Shown: positions 1 through 9,687 of the stretch, one piece after another
Layout: each line of letters begins with the position of its first letter
How positions within the stretch are numbered: the stretch's first letter is position 1
Assembly: GCA_963768425.1 (NCBI GenBank)
Contig: CAVYHV010000017.1
Span: 128,001 to 192,000 of the forward strand
Length of the DNA stretch: 64,000 bases
Reading direction: 5' to 3'
Source of the DNA: Candidatus Bathyarchaeota archaeon
GTDB taxonomy: Archaea > Thermoproteota > Bathyarchaeia > Bathyarchaeales > Bathycorpusculaceae
The notes under the pieces: generated by a model
Told to the model about the DNA's origin: nothing
Database searches by the model: none
Seen by the model: the letters and a program-made list of their open reading frames with translations, nothing else
Made by a program: the position numbers and the translations under genes

Positions 1-364
1 GCAGCCGCGTCTGGGCGCCGATGCTTTTAGCCATCAGATCGTAAGCGGTCCAGTAAGGCGTGGGTATAATGATGTTGCCACCAGCCTTCATTGTTAAATA
101 GAGGGTTGCAAAGACGCCCCATTTTGAACCTGGTGTGATAACCACGTTTTCGGCTTTTACTCCATGAATTTTAGCGAGTTTTTGCCTTAGTTTTTCCTCG
201 CCATAAGCTGAAGAATACTTGGTTTTCCCTGCCTTCATCGCAGCGTATGCTGCCTCTACAATCTCCGTGGGCGTGGCTAGGTCAGGGTCACCTAGGTTTA
301 AGCGGATTATTTTTTTCCCTTGGTTTTCGAGTCTTATGGCTTTCTCGTTTATTTCGTAGAGCAT
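1..364 (-). CDS. PLP-dependent class I/II (aspartate/aromatic) aminotransferase, 5' part; runs off the window
   Basis: Manual translation from ATG at 364: MLYEINEKAIRLENQGKKIIRLNLGDPDLATPTEIVEAAYAAMKAGKTKYSSAYGEEKLR...VVITPGSKWG...PTPYWTAY, typical class I aminotransferase N-terminus; last visible gene of the aro operon. Confidence 0.85.
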   Translation of the reverse strand, partial: MLYEINEKAIRLENQGKKIIRLNLGDPDLATPTEIVEAAYAAMKAGKTKYSSAYGEEKLRQKLAKIHGVKAENVVITPGSKWGVFATLYLTMKAGGNIIIPTPYWTAYDLMAKSIGAQTRL

Positions 365-393
365 TAGTGAACTTTCCTTTTTCTGATTATTTC

Positions 394-657
394 TTACTCT
401 TGAACTGCACTGCACATATTAACTATTTCGCGGTAGAGTGCCTCAACTTTCTGGGAATCTAAGCCTAATTCACCAGATTTCTCTTTCACTTTTTTGTAAA
501 CATCGTTTTCTCTGGAGACATCTTTTACAGGCATGCCGCGCTTCTTCTTCACTAAACCAATAGCCATGCATATCTTGATTCTTTCAGTCAGAGATTTCAA
601 AATCAAATCGTCTACTTGGTCAACCTGCTTTCGGTACATTTCAAGCTCATCTAACAA
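394..657 (-). CDS. Chorismate mutase (AroQ/type II)
   Basis: LEMYRKQVDQVDDLILKSLTER...KKKRGMPVKDVSRENDV motif; likely TTG start overlapping the aroC stop. Confidence 0.9.
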   Translation of the reverse strand: MLDELEMYRKQVDQVDDLILKSLTERIKICMAIGLVKKKRGMPVKDVSRENDVYKKVKEKSGELGLDSQKVEALYREIVNMCSAVQE

Positions 658-1765
658 TTTTCTTTGCCTCCAAGACTTTCGAAATGAAACCACCACGGAT
701 CATATGGTCAGCTAACGTAACAGCTACAGCGGCTTCCACCACCGGCACGGCTTTCGGGACCACACAGGGGTCATGCCTTCCTTTGACGGTTACAGATGCA
801 TCTTCCATATTGGACATGTTCACGGTTTTCTGCGGCAAGCTGATGGAAGGCGTCGGTTTAATCGCTACCAGCATGAGAATTGGCATGCCGTTTGATAAGC
901 CCCCCAAGATTCCACCCATGTTATTGGTGAAAGATGCAACTTTCCCGTTTTGCATGACGTAAGCGTCGTTGCTTTCTGAGCCTTTTGACTCAGCGATCCC
1001 GAAACCCAACCCGAATTCAACTGCTTTGACCGCTGGAACATTAAACAGCGCCTTAGCTAAATCAGCGTCAAGAGAGTCAAACAATGGCTCGCCTACCCCC
1101 ACTGGAACGTTGAGAACAAGACATTCGACTACGCCGCCTACGCTTTCACCTTCTTTTCTGGCTTCAACAATGACTTCCTTCATAATTTCACTGCACTCCA
1201 AGTCAGGGCATCGAGTCGCCGCCACATAACGATTCCTTCGGATCACTTCAGAACTAAACTTTTTGTCGCTTCTGATTTTGCCTATTGCTCTTGTATATGC
1301 TAAAACGTCGACGTCGAAGCGGCTTAGCAGTTTCTTGGCTATGGCGCCAGCCATTATTAATGCGACTGTGAGTCTTCCGCTGAAGCGTCCGCCCCCACGG
1401 TAATCGTTAAAGCCGCCGTACTTGATACTTGCAGTGTAGTCTGCGTGCCCGGGTCTTGGCAGATTCTTGTTTACCTCATAGTCTGAGGAGTCAACTTCTT
1501 TGTTCTCCACTGTCACCGCTATTGGTGCACCAGTCGTGAATCCATTAAAGACGCCTGAAAGGATTTTAGGCATGTCTTTTTCGATCCTTCCCGAAACAAT
1601 TTTGGGATCAGATGGGATGCGTCTGTCCAACTCGTCTTGAATGTCCGCTTCAGAGAGAGCTAAGCCTGCCGGGCAACCATCCACAACTACACCTACGATT
1701 TTGCCGTGGCTTTCTCCGAAACTGGTGACAACGAATTCTTTACCTATCGAATTTCCCGCCAACAA
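647..1765 (-). CDS. aroC: Chorismate synthase
   Basis: FGESHG, RPGHAD, GGGRFSGR, KPTPSI, GRHDPC motifs. Confidence 0.97.
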   Translation of the reverse strand: MLAGNSIGKEFVVTSFGESHGKIVGVVVDGCPAGLALSEADIQDELDRRIPSDPKIVSGRIEKDMPKILSGVFNGFTTGAPIAVTVENKEVDSSDYEVNKNLPRPGHADYTASIKYGGFNDYRGGGRFSGRLTVALIMAGAIAKKLLSRFDVDVLAYTRAIGKIRSDKKFSSEVIRRNRYVAATRCPDLECSEIMKEVIVEARKEGESVGGVVECLVLNVPVGVGEPLFDSLDADLAKALFNVPAVKAVEFGLGFGIAESKGSESNDAYVMQNGKVASFTNNMGGILGGLSNGMPILMLVAIKPTPSISLPQKTVNMSNMEDASVTVKGRHDPCVVPKAVPVVEAAVAVTLADHMIRGGFISKVLEAKKIVR

Positions 1766-3044
1766 TTTCCGCTCCTAACTGTTGTAGATGAATAAAGAAC
1801 TGTGGATAAGACTTTCTGACGCATTGAGCGTTTTGAATGAGAGTTTGCTTTTCCGCGCCTAGGGCTGCTACCGCGCAAGCCATCACTATACGATGGTCAT
1901 TGTGGGGGTTAATTGTGGCGCCGTGCAGGCTAGCGGTTTCCTTTATAGTTAGGCTGCTTGAATCCACTTCTATTTTGGCCCCCATCTTTGCGAATTCAGA
2001 ATGGAGGGATAGCAGCCTATCAGATTCTTTTAGCTTGAGCCTTTGCGCTCCGCTGATTTTTGAGGTACCTTTGGCGAAACATGCAAGAGCCGTGCACACT
2101 GGGACAAGATCAGGGATGTTTCTTGCATCGATGTTGAGTGGCTCAAGCGGACTTCCGACGCCGTCTATTTCGACGCTGTTCTCACAAACCTTGCCAGCTA
2201 CGCCCATTTGCTTGAGAATACCCAAAATTGCTTTGTCGCCCTGAATGGTCTCGTAATCGAGATCGTTTATCTGCACTTTTGAGTTAGTTACGGCTGCGGC
2301 TGCCAATAGAAATGCGGCTGAAGAGAAGTCTCCGGGCACTCGACAATCAACGGGCTTGAAGGTTTGGTTGGCTGGAATGACGATACTTTCGAAATTTCCG
2401 TAAACGTCCACTCTGATCCCATGCTTTGAGAGCACGTCCAAAGTCATCTTGACGTAGTCCGTTGACTCCAGCGGCGAGGTGAGCTTAATTTCAGTGTCAA
2501 CTTTAGCCATTGGGCATGCAAACATTAGACCCGAAATGAACTGGGAAGTAACATCGCCGCGAATTGAGGTTTGTCCTCCGAGGATTCCGCCGCCCTCGAC
2601 AATTACTGCGTCTTTGCCTCCGAATTTTTTTATATGAACCCTTGTGCCCAAATCGTCGAGGCTTTTGATTAGTGGTTCGATTGGTCTGCGGTTAAGAGAG
2701 CCGCGGAAGAGCAGCGTGGAAGAGTCACTTGCTAGGGCAGCTAGGGGTATCATGAAACGTAGCGTAGCCCCAGATTCTCCGCAGTCAACGGGTGCTTTCG
2801 CGTTTTGAATCGGCGCTGCGCCTTTGATAACCCAGCAGTTTTCCTCAAAGCTTGTTTCTGCACCTAACGCCGTTATCCCGCGCAAGGTAGCTTCTGTGTC
2901 TTCGGAAAGAAGCGGGTTTGAGACTTTTCCGGTACCGAATGAAAGCGCCGCTGCGATGAGCATTCTCTGTGTGTAAGATTTTGAAGGGGGAGCGCATAAT
3001 TCGCCTTTTAGTTTTTCAGATTTTTTAACGATTACGTCGACCAT
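1740..3044 (-). CDS. aroA: EPSP synthase
   Basis: PPSKSYTQR, GESGATLRF, SQFISGL, KESDRL, DHRIVM, KSYPQF. Confidence 0.97.
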   Translation of the reverse strand: MVDVIVKKSEKLKGELCAPPSKSYTQRMLIAAALSFGTGKVSNPLLSEDTEATLRGITALGAETSFEENCWVIKGAAPIQNAKAPVDCGESGATLRFMIPLAALASDSSTLLFRGSLNRRPIEPLIKSLDDLGTRVHIKKFGGKDAVIVEGGGILGGQTSIRGDVTSQFISGLMFACPMAKVDTEIKLTSPLESTDYVKMTLDVLSKHGIRVDVYGNFESIVIPANQTFKPVDCRVPGDFSSAAFLLAAAAVTNSKVQINDLDYETIQGDKAILGILKQMGVAGKVCENSVEIDGVGSPLEPLNIDARNIPDLVPVCTALACFAKGTSKISGAQRLKLKESDRLLSLHSEFAKMGAKIEVDSSSLTIKETASLHGATINPHNDHRIVMACAVAALGAEKQTLIQNAQCVRKSYPQFFIHLQQLGAEIVGGKFDR

Positions 3045-3045
3045 G

Positions 3046-3916
3046 CTAAATCACCTTTGCTTTCTCCTGGTTGAAGTTGGCTTGCAAGACTTCGCCGTCG
3101 AATTTCTTAAGCGCAGCACTCACCGAATCAACTTTGCCCTTGGGCGTAACTGCTGTTACCGCTGGTCCTTTACCGCAGAGCCCAGCCGCCACCGCCCCAG
3201 CTTCCAACGCGTCAATCGCGATTGAGGAGTCATACCCCCATGCTGATGAGTAGATTATGCCGTTGAGCGTCAACGACTCCCAGAACTTGCCCGCTAAAGC
3301 TTCTTCGTAGGCAACTTGAACTAGCGGTTTTACTTTTCGTGCCCTCTCAACGTTTGAGTCAGCTGTGTAGGATTTTTCCAGAGGAACATGGAAAAGCACA
3401 ACCAAATCTTCAGGCAAAGGTGACTTTCTGAGAAGTTTCTGCTCCAAATTGTCAGTAATAACCACGCCGCCGAAATATGAAGCGCATGCATCGTCAAAAG
3501 CGCCCGTAACTGTCACTTTAGCGTCGAAAGCAGCGTCAACGCCCAGCCTGACGATTTCAACGTCATCCAGCGTTTCGCCCAAGAGCCGCTATAGTTGCCA
3601 ACGCAACCGCATTAGCTGCGGCACTGCTGCTTTTAAGCCCCTTTGCGATGGGAATGTTGGACCAAGTTTTGACTTTGGCGCCGAATCTCCTCTCCGCCTT
3701 AAAATATTGGAGAACTCGCGCGACAGTTTTTTCCATCAGAACCGTGCTTTCTTTCGGATCAGAAACTATCTCTGCGTTGAAAATCGCGACCTCATCCGTC
3801 AATTCTACCTGCGCCTTCGTAAACAGGTCAACTCCGAAAGCGGCGCCTTTGCCCAGCGCCATTGCGTTAACAATCGTTGCTGCGCCATGAGCTATAGCTG
3901 TGGCTTCCTTCGTCAA
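3046..3916 (-). CDS. aroK: Archaeal GHMP-type shikimate kinase (apparent frameshift ~3575)
   Basis: HGAATIVNA and GLKSSSA in 3563..3916; VTVTGAFDDA and GKGPAV in 3046..3582. Confidence 0.9.
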
Positions 3917-4780
3917 CTCTTCTGCACCTTTCGCAAGTGACTAAGCGCTGCCTCCCTCATAACTTGAACTGGCGCCTTAGCTCCAGTCCAGATTTCAAAT
4001 GACGCTGCCCCTTGATAAATCAGCATTTCAACCCCACTGACCACTTTGGCGCCTGCAGCCTTCGCTTTTTTCGCTAATTTGGTTTCGATTGGGTTGTAGA
4101 CTATATCCATTACAGCTAAGTCAGGCTTGAGCCATTTTGGGGCTACCAGAGTTTCGTTATCGTTTGGTTTCATCCCGACTGAGGTAGCGTTAATCAGAAT
4201 GTCAGCATCAACTAGATTTCCTTTGACCGTGAGGGGGGAAAGCGCGTACGCAAACACTTTGCTGTCAAATGTTTCCTTTATGAGGTCAGCTAACTGGGCA
4301 GCTGGCACAATTGAACGATTCAAAATTGAAATCTCTGCTGTGTGCTCGGCCAAAGCGAAGGCTATAGCTCTTGCAGCGCCGCCTGCGCCAAGCAACATTA
4401 CTTTTTTGCCCTTGGGCTCAACTCCATTTTCTCTCAGAGCTGACAATGCACCGACGCCGTCAGTGTTAAAGCCCAAAAGTTTGCCATTTTCATTCTTTAC
4501 TGTGTTAACTGCCTTCAGAGCCTTGGCTGCCGGGTCAACTTCATCCAAGAAGCTAAGTACAGAGGCTTTATAAGGCATCGTAACGTTCAAGCCCTGAATC
4601 CCCAACGCACGTACGCCGTCCATGGCTTTTCCAACGTCAGGAGATTTTACATTAAACGCTAAGAATGTGCAGTCAAGTTTGGTTGCATGCAAACGCCGCG
4701 TTCTGCATAACTGGACTTAAGCTATGCTCAATGGGGTCGCCGATTACTCCGAAAACCTTGGTTTTCCCTGAAACAGCCAT
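3913..4780 (-). CDS. aroE: Shikimate dehydrogenase (apparent frameshift ~4688)
   Basis: N-terminus MAVSGKTKVFGVIGDPIEHSLSPVMQNAAF read manually from ATG at 4780; NVTMPYK, NTDG, GAGGAARA, QGAASF. Confidence 0.92.
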
Positions 4781-4781
4781 T

Positions 4782-5465
4782 TCACTGTGCCCCCAAAAGC
4801 TCGTATGCAGCCTTCATTTTGCCGATAGACATTTGCCCCTTCGCAGTTTCGCTACCCTGCTCAAGACAAGCAAAAGTGAAGAAAGCGCCGAACATCGGTG
4901 AAATAAGCCTTGAAACCTTCCCTTCTTCGCCCATGCAGAAACAGACAAGCTTCACCTTACCTGAATGGGAAGATACAAAATTCAGCACTTCCAAATTGTC
5001 CTCGATTTTCTTGGCTGTCACCACAATTTTGCAGACGTTGGCGCCGCATGCGACTTCTTGCTCAAGAACGTTTTCCATCGATGAACGGCTTAATTCGCCG
5101 TCGAATTTGTGGTGGGAAACTATTATTTTGGCGCCCAGCTGCTTGAGTTTTTCGATTATTTCTTGGCGATTCGGGCTTGACAGGTCAACGTCAACGTACT
5201 CGAACCCGTTTTGGGCTGCATTTAGAAGACTTTGTTGACGTTCGGTTTCTGACGCCGAGGAAACGCCGTTTTCACTGGTCAGTTTATGGGTTGCGATTAA
5301 AGGGATTTTTGCGCTCTGAATAAATGCCTTCAAGTCTGTTGTAACATCCATGCGGTCGAGCCTAACTTCGATTAGGTCGGCTTTGGCTTCCTCCGCGCTT
5401 TTGATGAGGTTTAACGCTTCAGCCGTGTTTTTTGGAAGAATCGAAACGCAGATTCTCATTGTCAC
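4782..5465 (-). CDS. aroD: Type I 3-dehydroquinate dehydratase
   Basis: EVRLD, VDVDL, IIVSHH, KIV, MGEEGKVSRL, GQM. Confidence 0.93.
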   Translation of the reverse strand: MTMRICVSILPKNTAEALNLIKSAEEAKADLIEVRLDRMDVTTDLKAFIQSAKIPLIATHKLTSENGVSSASETERQQSLLNAAQNGFEYVDVDLSSPNRQEIIEKLKQLGAKIIVSHHKFDGELSRSSMENVLEQEVACGANVCKIVVTAKKIEDNLEVLNFVSSHSGKVKLVCFCMGEEGKVSRLISPMFGAFFTFACLEQGSETAKGQMSIGKMKAAYELLGAQ

Positions 5466-6504
5466 CTTTCAATCACCGTTTCTTCAGGCACGGAAACGCC
5501 AAAGTGCCTGCCTCCCTTAGCGGCTAAATGCACCAGAACCTCGTCGTTTACGTTGAGTTCCGTGACGGGTTTGGAGGCTTTCGGCGTGACAAGGCGGATG
5601 GTTTCAGCGTTTTGCAGTATAGTTTTGATTTTTGTGTCGTCCGCTTGCGCTTCAATCAGGATGAGTGGTCGGAACTCGATTTTTGACCTGCCCACATTGG
5701 TTATTCTTGCTTTTCCTTCTCTGTTAATGATTAAAACTTCGTCCCCGGCTTTCAGTTCAGAGAGGTACCGAGTGTTCTGGATCGATGTTAGCGTGTAATG
5801 TGATGCAGGTCCAGCGTTCACTCGGAAGGGTCGGGATTGCACATACGGGTTCTCATTTACTTCCGCCTCAACGAGGAAGAACCCTGCTGATTGGCAGCCA
5901 ACGAGCATTCCCTCGCCTGGAACCATCAAATCTACAGTGTCCACGCAGACTCTTGCACCTGTGCCGATAGTTTGAATGGAGAGAACCTTTGCGATCGTTA
6001 ACGCGACCTTAGGAATTTGACCCTTGACCAGCTTTACTGTTTTGGCGAGTTCATTGAGGTTTGAGGTTTTTAGTAGAACACCGTCTGTTCCCAGCTCTAA
6101 GGCTTCAAGAACCACTTTGGCTTCTTGCGCGGTGGCGACTTCGCGATAAGTTTGCTTTTACCCCCATGCGCCTTCGCAATTAAGTTCTCCAGCGGGATAA
6201 CACGCCAATCAAACGTGCTAATAATTATGTAATCAACTCCCATCTCAGCCGCTTTGGCAGCGCGGTTCTCTTCTTCTTTCCCTGTTATGTTGATTTTAAC
6301 GGCGGTTTTTCTGCTTTCATTTTTAGTTTGCGAAATTTTTTTCTCAGACAGATCAGCGAGGAAAACTATGTCTAATTTGCCGTTACGGGTGCTCGCTTGG
6401 GTTCCTTCGAGCACTACATCCGCGTTTTCATGTGCAGTGCTGAGCAAGTTTTCTTTTTCTTGCGGTGAAGCCGCATGTTCGATTTCTACCCAAAGTTCCT
6501 TCAC
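5462..6504 (-). CDS. aroB': 3-dehydroquinate synthase II (archaeal; apparent frameshift ~6140)
   Basis: DWRVIPLENLIA, RVCVDT, RPFRVNAG, YLSEL, LQNAETIRL, GRHFG. Confidence 0.93.
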
Positions 6505-7291
6505 GTTTTTTCACCGAGAATTTTAGCGCTTCTTGCACGCTGGCGCCGCCGTGAACGATTGCTGAGAGCGCCTTGACGATTAGGGTTGGGTTTTCATGTT
6601 GGAAGACGTTGCGTCCGATTGAAAGCCCAGATGCTCCAGCTGAAAGGGCGTCATGTGTGGTTTGGAGAACTTCTTCAGAAGTCTTGCATTTCGGTCCCCC
6701 GGCAATCACCACTGGAACGGGGCAACTCTCCACCACGGTTTTGAAGGTGTCTATGCTTCCTGTAAAGTTTGCTTTGATGATGTCTGCGCCAAGCTCGGCG
6801 CCGATTCGTGCTGCATGAGCAACGACGTCGGCTGCGTGTTCATTTTGTATTTTGGGTCCCCGAGGATACATCATTGCAAGAAGCGGCATGCCGTAAACAT
6901 CACATTCGTCGGCTACGCTACCAAGGTTTTGAAGCATTTTGTCTTCGTCTTGGGCGCCGATGTTAACGTGCACTGAAACCGCGTCTGCACCAAGGCGAAT
7001 TGCTTCCTGTACGCTGCAAACTTGGACTTTGCCGTTCACGTTCGGGCTAAGGTTTGACATGCCTGAAAGCATCACGATTAACCCTACGTCATCAGCGTCG
7101 GTGTGTTTAGCGATGCCTTTGTGGACAAGGACGGCGTCGGCGCCGCCTTTGATGAGTTGATCGATTGTTTTCTGCATGTTGGTTAACCCTTGGATTGGGC
7201 CGATTGTTACGCCGTGGTCCATAGGTACGATTACAGTACGGTTGTCTTGCTGCATTATTCTTCTTAGTCTTCGACTTTTTCCTTGATTCAT
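6428..7291 (-). CDS. aroA': 2-amino-3,7-dideoxy-D-threo-hept-6-ulosonate (ADH) synthase, DhnA-type aldolase; true stop probably ~6500 (1-nt deletion near end)
   Basis: PMDHG, MYPRG, AELGADIIK, AGGPK, GRNVFQ; adjacent to DHQ synthase II. Confidence 0.9.
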   Translation of the reverse strand: MNQGKSRRLRRIMQQDNRTVIVPMDHGVTIGPIQGLTNMQKTIDQLIKGGADAVLVHKGIAKHTDADDVGLIVMLSGMSNLSPNVNGKVQVCSVQEAIRLGADAVSVHVNIGAQDEDKMLQNLGSVADECDVYGMPLLAMMYPRGPKIQNEHAADVVAHAARIGAELGADIIKANFTGSIDTFKTVVESCPVPVVIAGGPKCKTSEEVLQTTHDALSAGASGLSIGRNVFQHENPTLIVKALSAIVHGGASVQEALKFSVKKREGTLGRNRTCGFTARKRKLAQHCT

Positions 7292-7300
7292 GTTTCCACC

Positions 7301-8549
7301 TTACTTAGCGCTCCTTAAAGAGTTTTTAATCATTTTGAGGGCTTTTTCCCGTTCATTCCAATCCACAAAAAGTAGGATGCTTGACGTTATTGTCAGTATT
7401 CCTGAAATGTTTATGCCGCTAACTCGCAAATCTTCACTGATTTTCCCAATTATGCCGTGGGTTTCCTCCAAGCCGACGCCGCTTGTCTTTATGAAAACAA
7501 GGTCCTTTTTCACAGCCATAGCGATCGTTTCCTTGTTGCTCTTTGTTATATTGTGGATATCGTTGAATAACCCCTCCAAGTTTGCTTCTTCTGAAACGTA
7601 AAGGATAACGGAGTTCGTGTTCATCGACATGCCCAAGAGATGCGAATGCAGCTTCGTTTTCTCAACCATCTCCTGAACGATCTGCGGGTTAGCTGAGATG
7701 CCGTTCCCTATCACGGTAATTTCGGCGACAGGGAAAGGATGCGCAATTTCAGCGTCAAGCTCACTGGCTAAGTCCACCTGTAACTAACGTTCCTTCTTCT
7801 GAAAGGTTGCCGCAGGCGTGGTTGATGACGCGGACGTTGATATTTTTGGGTTTGTACTTTAACGCTTTGCTGTGGATGAATTTCGCACCTGAATCGGCAA
7901 GCCCAACTAGCGTGTTGACATCGATTTCTTTTAGACGCTCAACGTTGGAAAGAAGTTTCGGGTCTCCTGTCATGATGCCGTTAGCGTCTGTTACCAAGAT
8001 GATTTCGTTCGCTCCTAGCGCTTCGGCGAGGACAAAGGCCGTTGTGTCGCTTCCACCTCTTCCAAGAGTTGTGATTTTGCCGTCTTTGGTTTTACCCAAG
8101 AAACCTGCAACCACGGGAACTGTGCCTTTTTCCATGATTGGCAGGACGCATTCACGGATATTTTTTTCGCAGTCTTTGAGGATTGGATTAGCATTTTGAA
8201 AGGCTGCATCAGTTATTATAGGCCAGTTGCTGTCAATCGGGTCAAAATAGCAGGATTCCGCTCCGTTCGTTCTTAGCGCTGTTGAGAAGATTCGGATGCT
8301 GGTCCGCTCACCCATCGACAGGATATCGTCCAAATCTTTTTTCTCCAGTTTCCCGTTGGAAGCGTTCTTCGCCGTAGCCATGAGGACATCAGTTGTTTTG
8401 CCCATAGCGGAAACTACAACAGCGATCCGAGTGCCTTTTTTAGCTTCATTAACCACAGCAACCACAGCTTTTAAGAGTCTTTCGTGATCCGCTAGGCTAG
8501 ACCCACCGAATTTAACAACAATTGTTTTGTTAGAGCGAGTTTTCTCCAT
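7301..8549 (-). CDS. lysC: Aspartate kinase with C-terminal ACT-like region (apparent frameshift ~7770)
   Basis: VKFGGSS, VVSAMGKTTD, GER, TLGRGGSDTTA; ACT-like part in 7301..7777. Confidence 0.92.
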
Positions 8550-8566
8550 TTGTTACACCCGTGCTT

Positions 8567-8605
8567 GCCCAGAACCAACCCCAAAAAAATTCTTTAGTTC
8601 TGGGC
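8567..8605 (-). terminator. Putative attenuator hairpin with U7 tract in the loop
   Basis: mRNA GCCCAGAACUAA-AGAAUUUUUUUGGGG-UUGGUUCUGGGC: 12-bp stem (11 Watson-Crick + 1 U:G) whose 5' arm covers the last 3 leader codons and the stop. Confidence 0.55.
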
Positions 8606-8689
8606 TTGAGGAAAATAACTATAATAAAAGTAGTCGAAGCTCTGGAACCATGAGGCAACGTTTTCTTTGTTGAGTGCGAGATTAGACAT
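8594..8689 (-). CDS. Putative aromatic-amino-acid-sensing leader peptide (31 aa)
   Basis: ATG...TAA ORF MSNLALNKENVASWFQSFDYFYYSYFPQAQN; 1 W, 4 F, 4 Y within residues 14-26; ends 44 nt before the aspartate kinase ATG. Confidence 0.8.
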   Translation of the reverse strand: MSNLALNKENVASWFQSFDYFYYSYFPQAQN

Positions 8690-8728
8690 TGAAGCTTCGA
8701 ACCTTGCAGAATGAGTCATAAAATAGAA

Positions 8729-8744
8729 AATATAAGCGTTTCGG
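8729..8744 (-). promoter_or_regulatory. Putative BRE/TATA promoter of the leader plus aro operon
   Basis: Minus strand CCGAAAcgCTTATATT; predicted TSS ~8705-8710, just upstream of the leader ATG. Confidence 0.55.
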
Positions 8745-8850: not shown

Positions 8851-9687
8851 ATGAAAACTCAAAACCAAAGCAACTGGCAAAGTATCCTTCTCGAATGCAA
8901 AAACAATGTTCAGAAAAGCATCGCGCCCTGCCTCAAAACTATCAAAGAAACTCAACCCAACCTTGGAGTGGGCGCAGGCGGCGACTCGATGAAGCCTATG
9001 GATTTAGCGGCTGAAAAAGCGATCATAGACACCTTGAACCTACATAAAGTTTCGTTTACTTTAATCAGCGAGGAATCGGGGGTAAAGCAATTTGGCGAGT
9101 CGGCGAATGAGTGTTTTGTTACGGTTGACCCGATTGATGGAAGCACAAATTTCATGCGTGGCTTACCCTTCTACGCATGCTCTATCGCGGTTTCAGATAA
9201 GCCTCGGCTAGCGGATGTTTACGCTGGGTTGGTCGCAGACCTCTTCCATGATGTGACGTACACTGCTTTATTGGGGAAAGGCGCATTCCGGGACGGAAAA
9301 AAGATTGAACCCTCAAAAACTGCGTCGTTGGATGAGGCGCTGATAGGTTTAGATCTGAATACTTACAAAGTCAAAGAGGTTGCGCCCAAAGTAACTGCAC
9401 TTATCGAGAAAACTAAGCATATACGCCACTTCGGTGCAAACGCGCTGGAACTCTGCTACGTGGCCGATGGCTCAACAGACGCGTTCGTCGACTTACGAGG
9501 GAAACTGCGCACAACTGACGTCGCAGCGGGTTTCCTCATCATAAAAGAGGCAGGCGGAATTGTTACAACCCCAGATGATCAAGCCATAGATGTCGAGTTA
9601 GACCCTAAGCGGACGTTGAGTTTTATCGCTTCAAGCAACAGGAAAATCCACGAAAAAATCTTAAGCCTGGTTAAAAAACCATGTTAA
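8851..9687 (+). CDS. suhB: Inositol monophosphatase / FBPase (FIG family)
   Basis: ISEE, DPIDGSTNF, DVAAG. Confidence 0.88.
   Translation: MKTQNQSNWQSILLECKNNVQKSIAPCLKTIKETQPNLGVGAGGDSMKPMDLAAEKAIIDTLNLHKVSFTLISEESGVKQFGESANECFVTVDPIDGSTNFMRGLPFYACSIAVSDKPRLADVYAGLVADLFHDVTYTALLGKGAFRDGKKIEPSKTASLDEALIGLDLNTYKVKEVAPKVTALIEKTKHIRHFGANALELCYVADGSTDAFVDLRGKLRTTDVAAGFLIIKEAGGIVTTPDDQAIDVELDPKRTLSFIASSNRKIHEKILSLVKKPC

Follow-up and report, generated by a model that had tools for sequence, protein, structure and literature searches.

Does the short, aromatic-rich reading frame in front of the aromatic amino acid operon of a member of the Candidatus Bathyarchaeota serve as a regulatory leader peptide, and if so, through which step would it control the operon? 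The locus in question lies at positions 8550 to 8744 of a 64,000-nucleotide stretch of contig CAVYHV010000017.1 (positions 128,001 to 192,000, assembly GCA_963768425.1), hereafter the window, whose numbering is used throughout; both the upstream open reading frame (uORF) and the operon are on its minus strand. The major data collected were comparisons of this leader with those of related genomes, in which loci carry L numbers and families carry f numbers. From these data the element was deduced to be, probably, a regulatory leader peptide sensing Tyr and Phe, whatever the output step. It would likely act in cis, reporting the supply of charged Tyr- and Phe-tRNA to its own operon. The output step itself is far less certain.

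Structure of the leader in the window

The uORF runs from an ATG at 8689 to a TAA at 8596 to 8594 and would encode MSNLALNKENVASWFQSFDYFYYSYFPQAQN. Residues 14 to 26 comprise one Trp, four Phe, and four Tyr, and no aromatic residue is found at the remaining positions. The ATG lies about 40 nt downstream of a promoter composed of a B recognition element (BRE) and TATA box, in which the positions that varied among 23 leaders of the genus were the first and the C of GAAAC; leaders of other genera are also preceded by a BRE/TATA motif like that of the window. The uORF leads into a hairpin of 12 bp, termed hairpin B, with the window's own stop codon inside the 5′ arm and the T7 tract in the loop. 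No U-run is present 3′ of this stem in the window, where the stem is followed by AAGCACGGGUG. The promoter, the 31-codon uORF with nine aromatic codons in 13, the 12-bp hairpin, and the U7 tract four nucleotides past the stop had been described in a first-pass annotation of this DNA, and all were found at the coordinates given there.

An alternative in-frame ATG at 8719 would give a 41-aa ORF, which is probably not transcribed because this ATG sits beside the TATA box. In the nearest relatives (L031 and L032, with kinases 99 to 97% identical) and in most of the genus, the ORF is four codons shorter and stops at a TAA directly 5′ of stem B, where the window has CAA; a T at 8608 was also present in two RNA-derived contigs. 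Judged against these relatives, the last four codons of the window's ORF (QAQN) are a local peculiarity.

Conservation of the uORF

Taken alone, the sequence of the window is modestly unusual, as nine aromatics in 13 residues were reached by 3 of the 22,543 ATG-initiated ORFs of 15 to 60 aa in this genome. Its significance therefore rests on conservation. A uORF was accepted if it had an ATG start, 10 to 45 codons, an end no more than 170 nt from the gene, and at least five aromatics in some stretch of 12 residues. By this fixed rule, a uORF was found at 108 of 114 loci upstream of the orthologous aspartate kinase/AroA′/AroB′ operon, against a background of 108 of 2,758 proxy genes (3.9%) of this genome, or 0.22% at a cutoff of at least seven aromatics. 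The expectation that relatives would carry a conserved aromatic-rich short ORF and a hairpin ahead of the operon was thereby strongly borne out. Three of the six misses were paralogues. At L111, L114, and L118, which fell below the rule for ATG and at least five aromatics, weaker F/Y-rich frames are nevertheless present.

The same placement was obtained in each set of loci within the order. In the first draw, an aromatic-rich ATG uORF was found at all 26 orthologous kinase loci, and none was found at three first-draw loci where a 43 to 46% identical paralogue stands behind another gene. Named metagenome-assembled genomes (MAGs) of Bathyarchaeia gave 46 of 46 usable loci, and sampling of seven families of the order gave 37 of 40. 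The close relatives are titled Candidatus Bathyarchaeota or Bathyarchaeia and come mostly from peat, bog, and soil. In other orders of the class, an aromatic uORF was found at 10 of 18 informative loci, with L139 as a weaker eleventh case; examples are MFFDFFYYYFYFE, ...NPYYYYYYYCFF, and ...RFFGYFYFYYFK. In other classes of the phylum, the count was 6 of 12, among which L154 alone is individually strong; L158, also from another class, has the complete layout of promoter, uORF, hairpin, and Shine-Dalgarno (SD) sequence. The uORF and its putative regulatory codons are thus conserved at the same place relative to the operon, as in known attenuators.

For the statistics that follow, 92 unique leaders were used. 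Six duplicates were left out, as were ten loci with no assignable kinase start (L005, L007, L012, L013, L050, L053, L055, L061, L077, and L099). L076 was dropped for want of upstream DNA and L078 as an unrelated 27% match.

Composition of the leader peptides

The leader frames are 22 to 31 codons long, and the median over the 92 leaders is 27. Their last 12 residues consist of Tyr (33%), Phe (26%), Ser (10%), Gly (5.5%), and Trp (1.3%); a median of 7 of these 12 residues are aromatic, compared with 7% in the rest of the peptide. In 91 of the 92, the last aromatic codon is 0 to 2 codons from the stop. The leader of this operon is thus enriched in codons for end products of the pathway, in the manner of attenuators. 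The first-pass annotation had the leader covering all three end products, and this was not upheld for Trp, given its 1.3% share. The operon includes tyrA and an aminotransferase, in keeping with the abundance of Tyr, and the leader is accordingly taken as a Tyr/Phe leader.

The N-terminal half varies in both sequence and length while the frame stays open, and the C terminus is conserved in composition and position rather than in sequence. Between close relatives, Tyr and Phe codons are exchanged synonymously. Among 55 leaders of the genus type, one Phe codon is always TTC and the Ser codon beside it is AGC in nearly all (AAC in one); both lie in a predicted RNA helix described below (helix A), and the other Tyr/Phe codons vary, unlike this TTC. 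Such a pattern is that of presumptive regulatory codons.

RNA helices and the U-tract

A hairpin at the stop codon is shared by 91 of the 92 leaders; in 85 of these 91, the base of the hairpin is no more than 3 nt from the stop on either side (−3 to +3 nt). The stems range from 10 to 24 bp with bulges and variable loops, and the 5′ arms comprise 46 distinct 8-mers. When the region from stop to kinase start was compared with dinucleotide shuffles, the median z was −3.0 and 70 of the 92 were below −2; the whole-leader fold of the window as a single sequence was no better than its shuffles (z −0.69; 44 of 200 shuffles as good). The hairpin B motif occurs once in the genome. In a second predicted helix, helix A, the initiation region of the uORF (5′ UTR, the 5′ untranslated region, or first codons) is paired with the first aromatic codons. 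Its form in the genus is UCGAAGCU:AGCUUCGA, and in other lineages the same role is taken by perfect helices of 9 to 13 bp with unrelated sequence.

Pairing was assessed by arm-swap tests on 36 genus-level representatives. For hairpin B, own arms gave −19.6 kcal/mol and foreign arms −13.0 kcal/mol, with the own arm in the top four in 23 of 36. For helix A, the corresponding values were −17.5 and −13.2 kcal/mol, with the own arm in the top four in 14 of 36. These values support both predicted helices. The swap tests and per-sequence folds were used instead of a cross-family alignment because inner stems misalign there: RNAalifold on a MAFFT alignment across families recovered no more than 8 pairs, of which 3 showed compensatory changes. 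In the genus alignment, which has 16 predicted pairs, one-sided changes gave G-U or U-G in 9 cells and 7 cells were broken. Five of the broken cells were attributed to a one-column misalignment of the window's row by MAFFT, leaving a C-A in L012 and a G-A in L023, both in helix A. No match at gathering score was found in the window with Rfam; the segment 8450 to 8800 gave three chance-level matches (E 0.051 to 9.3) far under the cutoffs.

The first run of at least four U residues ends at a median of 24 nt past the stop (interquartile range, 24 to 26) and is present in 81 of the 92 leaders despite their differing stems. In the window and in most leaders, the run is thereby placed at the tip of hairpin B or on its descending strand, often facing an A-run. 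By a tally made by eye, a run ending at +19 to +29 is found in about 22 of 33 genera.

RNA-derived contigs

Three metatranscriptome runs from three studies were available as assembled contigs covering small shares (0.06 to 0.08), so the uncovered parts are uninformative, and contig-level RNA data cannot give expression level, strand, or 3′ ends. The organisms are uncultured, and it is at the level of contigs that RNA shows the leader to be transcribed. The uORF is covered by contigs from two of the studies, each ending 5 nt upstream of the ATG, at 8694. One RNA-derived contig spans the uORF, the hairpin, and U7 and continues into the kinase gene, to 8427. These contigs argue weakly against a transcription start downstream of 8689, which the first-pass annotation had named as a finding that would speak against the leader.

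The shared contig end at 8694, the same base in two studies, lies farther downstream, by 11 nt, than the start that the conserved TATA box predicts. A second TATA-like stretch (tattttat, 8725 to 8718) would fit a transcription start at 8694, in which case the 5′ arm of helix A would be left out of the transcript.

How the leader may act

The anatomy supports a leader peptide that would sense charged Tyr/Phe-tRNA by the progress of the ribosome; no other reason could be conceived for keeping, across the class, a translatable frame with a Tyr/Phe run that ends at a hairpin before this operon. In the proposed mechanism, a ribosome close behind RNA polymerase would decode the last ~10 codons, which hold the aromatic run, while hairpin B is being synthesized. 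With charged tRNA plentiful, the ribosome would reach the last codons and the stop and would cover or unwind the 5′ arm of B, which only a ribosome at the very end of the uORF could do. With Tyr or Phe scarce, it would lag and B would form. As B would form on starvation and be blocked on sufficiency, negative feedback demands that B favor expression. The output favored here is that B neutralizes the oligo-U embedded in it, so that premature termination at the U-tract by aCPSF1 (FttA) would be avoided and the operon read through; with B held open by the ribosome, the U-tract would be exposed and transcription would end before the kinase gene is translated. Helix A, for its part, would shut the start site of the leader once the pioneer ribosome has passed. 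Passages of one study (PMC8716108) describe aCPSF1 as binding U-tracts via its KH domains and archaeal termination as needing no hairpin. A metallo-beta-lactamase/beta-CASP gene is present in this genome; its KH domain was not confirmed, and the gene is fragmented in this assembly.

This U-tract output is speculative and is put forward as a tentative preference. The full chain, in which Bathyarchaeia and probably other Thermoproteota would regulate aromatic biosynthesis by ribosome-coupled attenuation, with the speed of the lead ribosome on the Tyr/Phe run setting the hairpin at the uORF stop and thereby the access of aCPSF1/FttA-type termination to the embedded U-tract, is possible but doubtful.

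Several results weigh against this reading. A classical switch of the 1:2, 2:3, 3:4 kind is one form that the control does not take. Helices A and B do not overlap or compete in the genus RNAalifold structure, and the 3′ arm of B had no downstream partner better than chance (own −8.1 versus foreign −8.3 kcal/mol; 2 of 32 below z −1.64). Since no third segment pairs with this arm, the 2:3/3:4 arrangement was rejected on the negative swap and shuffle tests; mutually exclusive terminator and antiterminator helices with a common strand, as expected of an attenuator-type switch, were not found in these leaders. The role of U7 as a terminator U-tract did not hold in the form first proposed, as the tract sits in the loop or descending strand and about a third of the genera (11 of 33 by the same tally) are without a U4+ run ending at +19 to +29. 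In many leaders, moreover, the U-run is unpaired in a large loop. A terminator hairpin directly followed by a U-run before the first gene is not present in the window. A U-run after the stem is found in some lineages, namely in f14 (L119 and L120), where a hairpin is followed by U5 directly before GGAGG, a poor fit to the favored output. No RNA contig ends at U7 in the three metatranscriptome runs. We know of no archaeal precedent for a hairpin acting as a protector. On a simpler physical view, stalling of the ribosome would uncouple the polymerase, which would then terminate at oligo-U, and the sign of the regulation would be wrong. Because the genomes sampled are relatives of one another, the conservation counts are not independent and overstate independence.

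Other biosynthetic operons of this genome gave no parallel either. Analogous leaders were looked for, and no Trp- or His-rich leader was found in the upstream regions of trpE or hisG, although a frameshift masks where trpE starts. When 4,115 upstream short ORFs were scanned without guidance, no other convincing leader emerged; the top matches are beside genes with no evident link to amino acid biosynthesis, as judged from their sequences and not by Pfam. An F/Y-rich ORF at C8:119687 was dropped, as no biosynthetic gene lies downstream of it.

Alternative explanations

In the best surviving alternative, attenuation would be translational: in the ground state, either the tail of the uORF or the 3′ arm of B, once freed, would sequester the ribosome-binding site (RBS) of the kinase gene, the position of the ribosome on the uORF would open or close this site, and any effect on the transcript would be secondary polarity, as with ermC or the mycobacterial polycysteine leaderless small ORFs (sORFs). 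The position of the regulatory codons at the 3′ end of the uORF is shared with the mycobacterial Cys attenuator as presented in part of that report (bioRxiv 10.1101/834739). In ten leaders (L001, L031, L079, L081, L082, L084, L087, L089, L109, and L117), 0.5 to 0.98 of the predicted SD pairing goes to the uORF tail; in L083 and L108, with the 5′ arm masked, the 3′ arm was able to fold into a hairpin that encloses the SD and the start codon; and the partner test for the 3′ arm of B reached significance in two leaders, L105 and L108. Over the 92 leaders, however, mean RBS accessibility was 0.44 for the free leader, 0.43 when a ribosome was placed on the first aromatic codon, 0.47 when it was on the last one, and 0.47 when it was at the stop. 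Duplexes of uORF tail and RBS did not surpass those with shuffled or mismatched partners (median z +0.25; 1 of 92 below −1.64), the SD core was not less accessible (0.35) than that of 250 control genes from this genome (0.31), and the 3′ arm of B is without a lineage-specific partner. Sequestration of the RBS by the uORF tail, or its opening by a stalled ribosome, was accordingly rejected, as the masked folds, the duplexes, the SD core, and the 250-gene control gave no signal for it. Ground-state sequestration as expected of a translational attenuator was thus not found, with L083 and L108 as leaders that may differ, and the translational explanation as a whole is deemed unlikely.

Arrest by the nascent peptide is a still less probable account. 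Here the aromatic C terminus in the exit tunnel would sense free Tyr or Phe and arrest the ribosome near the stop, holding B open and repressing the operon when these are abundant, as TnaC does for Trp and the fungal arginine attenuator peptide (AAP) for Arg. This would give the correct regulatory sign without hungry codons, and it is consistent with regulatory residues that are made last before a stop that abuts a structure. Known arrest peptides need specific residues. No position-specific C-terminal motif of the kind seen in TnaC, AAP, or SecM is conserved between the families sampled, whose C termini include SFDYYFYYYHFP, FYSFSYFFYN, YFSGYWTFSY, FFGSFGYFGYRG, and MFFDFFYYYFYFE; composition alone is kept. 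Arrest is therefore considered very unlikely.

That there is no ribosome sensor at all, the ORF being a small functional protein or else incidental to an inverted repeat that serves as the DNA operator of a dimeric repressor, is the least credible account: although dimer-bound repeats can also covary by arm and a trans-acting peptide is compatible with the present evidence, the nine G-U/U-G cells keep RNA pairing and break DNA symmetry, so that RNA pairing is favored over an operator, and the true mismatches are two, both in helix A; the stems with their bulges and loops vary as given above, the repeat always begins at the stop of a frame kept open despite indels, the peptide is conserved in composition alone, and the motif is unique in the genome.

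Relation to known systems

The proposed Tyr/Phe-sensing leader resembles bacterial attenuators such as E. coli pheL-pheA, trpL, and hisL in its short leader ORF with clustered end-product codons, in helices that overlap the ORF, and in the coupling of transcription and translation; like the multivalent thr and ilv leaders of bacteria, it mixes two amino acids in one run. It differs in belonging to an archaeon, in its BRE/TATA promoter and its short or nearly absent 5′ UTR, and in having neither a competing terminator/antiterminator pair nor a match to an Rfam leader family. Furthermore, the U-tract of the window is inside the hairpin, and the regulatory codons run up to a stop that abuts the hairpin. 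The mycobacterial polycysteine sORFs, as far as described in part of the report (bioRxiv 10.1101/834739), are alike in a nearly leaderless first sORF, a codon run at its 3′ end, and a structured spacer before the SD; there, the SD is paired with the Cys tract and control is exerted on translation, whereas tail-SD pairing in the present leaders is at chance level.

In Salmonella mgtL and E. coli tnaC, the position of the ribosome on the leader ORF gates the access of Rho to the nascent RNA. The favored output has the same logic, with aCPSF1/FttA on a U-tract as the proposed factor instead of Rho on a rut site. For Haloferax volcanii, ribosome profiling has revealed translated small ORFs in 5′ UTRs (PMC7261190 and PMC10117724); the parts of these papers at hand give no amino acid logic, codon run, or demonstrated regulation for them, and one paper calls them 'reminiscent' of leader peptides.

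Coordinates and gene context

The features of the leader and operon are collected in Table 1.

Table 1. Features of the leader and the downstream operon (positions in the window)
Feature	Position	Strand	Basis or remark
BRE/TATA promoter cgaaacgcttatatttt	8728..8744	-	15 of 17 positions invariant across 23 aligned genus leaders
Predicted transcription start, about A8705	8702..8706	-	Usual archaeal spacing, with the TATA center ~26-27 nt upstream
Helix A 5′ arm UCGAAGCU, in the short 5′ UTR	8693..8700	-	RNAalifold consensus (23 genus sequences) and arm-swap test (36 genus-level representatives)
uORF/leader peptide, 31 codons plus stop (27 codons in close relatives)	8594..8689	-	ATG-started frame conserved
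Aromatic codon run WFQSFDYFYYSYF	8612..8650	-	uORF of the window
Helix A 3′ arm AGCUUCGA, Ser-Phe-Asp codons	8634..8641	-	RNAalifold consensus and arm-swap test
CAA codon at the site of the relatives' uORF stop TAA	8606..8608	-	Comparison with relatives; RNA-derived contigs
Predicted hairpin B GCCCAGAACUAA ... UUGGUUCUGGGC, abutting the ancestral stop	8567..8605	-	Folding and genus RNAalifold
U7 tract, loop of hairpin B	8583..8589	-	Sequence; starts 4 nt past the stop
SD-like GGGUG of the first operon gene	8556..8560	-	Sequence; GGGTG conserved
Aspartate kinase, first operon gene	7301..8549	-	Pfam; split into AA_kinase (8549-7761) and ACT (7777-7301)
AroA′ (DeoC/LacD-family aldolase, ADH synthase type)	6428..7291	-	Pfam PF01791, E 1.6e-63
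AroB′ (3-dehydroquinate synthase II), two overlapping frames	5462..6504	-	PF01959 on both pieces
aroD, aroE, GHMP-type shikimate kinase (two pieces), EPSP synthase, chorismate synthase	647..5465	-	Pfam
Class I/II aminotransferase, start	1..415	-	Gene runs out of the window

Past the start of the window, the same strand continues with prephenate dehydrogenase (tyrA) and then a glutamine amidotransferase. The latter, a class I enzyme of 206 aa at contig positions 125782 to 126402 (minus strand), closes the same-strand gene run after tyrA and may be a TrpG/PabA-type subunit cotranscribed with the operon. On the other side, a divergent gene of the inositol-monophosphatase/FBPase family (8851 to 9687, plus strand) shares a 300-nt intergenic region with the leader promoter.

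The aspartate kinase of the window has a 1-nt insertion relative to that of L031, whose frame is 415 aa. Overlapping split frames were noted at 7761 to 7777, 6097 to 6115, and 3563 to 3582 and elsewhere in the genome (another contig at ~49.1 to 49.9 kb; L163), the split genes including those for aspartate kinase, AroB′, shikimate kinase, trpE, and the beta-CASP nuclease. These look like indel errors of the assembly and not pseudogenes. Homopolymer lengths such as U7 therefore need caution; L031 nevertheless also has T7.

Other elements were observed upstream of the kinase in some lineages. L141 and L134, from the lineages f17 and f32 of other orders, are without an aromatic uORF. These two loci instead have in common a conserved stretch GG..CACG/CGCGTTTTCAGGGGGC (~190 to 260 of the oriented locus in L141 and ~930 to 1000 in L134), which may be a different leader element. 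In L143, L144, and L147 (f26 and f35), the place of the Tyr/Phe run is taken by a short frame whose shared motif is GD-x-[VIF]-[YF]-GD-like, with MGVHFFGDGVY and HGDHVYGDGY as examples. In L152 (f40, another class), the uORF contains an anti-SD-like CCUCCUGA for which two copies of UCAGGAG are alternative partners: one lies just 5′ of the aromatic codons, and the other, directly past the stop, is the SD of the kinase gene. The layout of L152 is unlike the hairpin-after-stop design.

Implications for archaeal regulation

Leader-peptide attenuation is a textbook mechanism of bacteria. A passage in one paper (PMC8448881) calls initiation 'the only known target' of transcription regulation in archaea. 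The proposal that an archaeon has an aromatic leader peptide dependent on the ribosome is well supported by the comparison, and its novelty was upheld in that no archaeal amino acid leader peptide or ribosome-mediated attenuator was found in the literature searched, most subscription journals and supplements lying outside it. Among archaea, the element appears to be the first equivalent of the leader-peptide attenuators of bacteria. Its sensing principle is bacterial, while its domain of life, promoter context, and expression platform differ.

Regulatory ORFs of fewer than 30 codons escape the annotation of MAGs, and the present case supplies a search recipe for others. The leader would also offer a natural template for studying the interplay of ribosomes, RNA structure, U-tracts, and FttA. 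If the proposal is true, this would be the first case in which the coupling between archaeal transcription and translation is used as a metabolic sensor, and the attenuator would be built from archaeal and eukaryote-like termination parts and not from the hairpin-plus-U terminator of bacteria.

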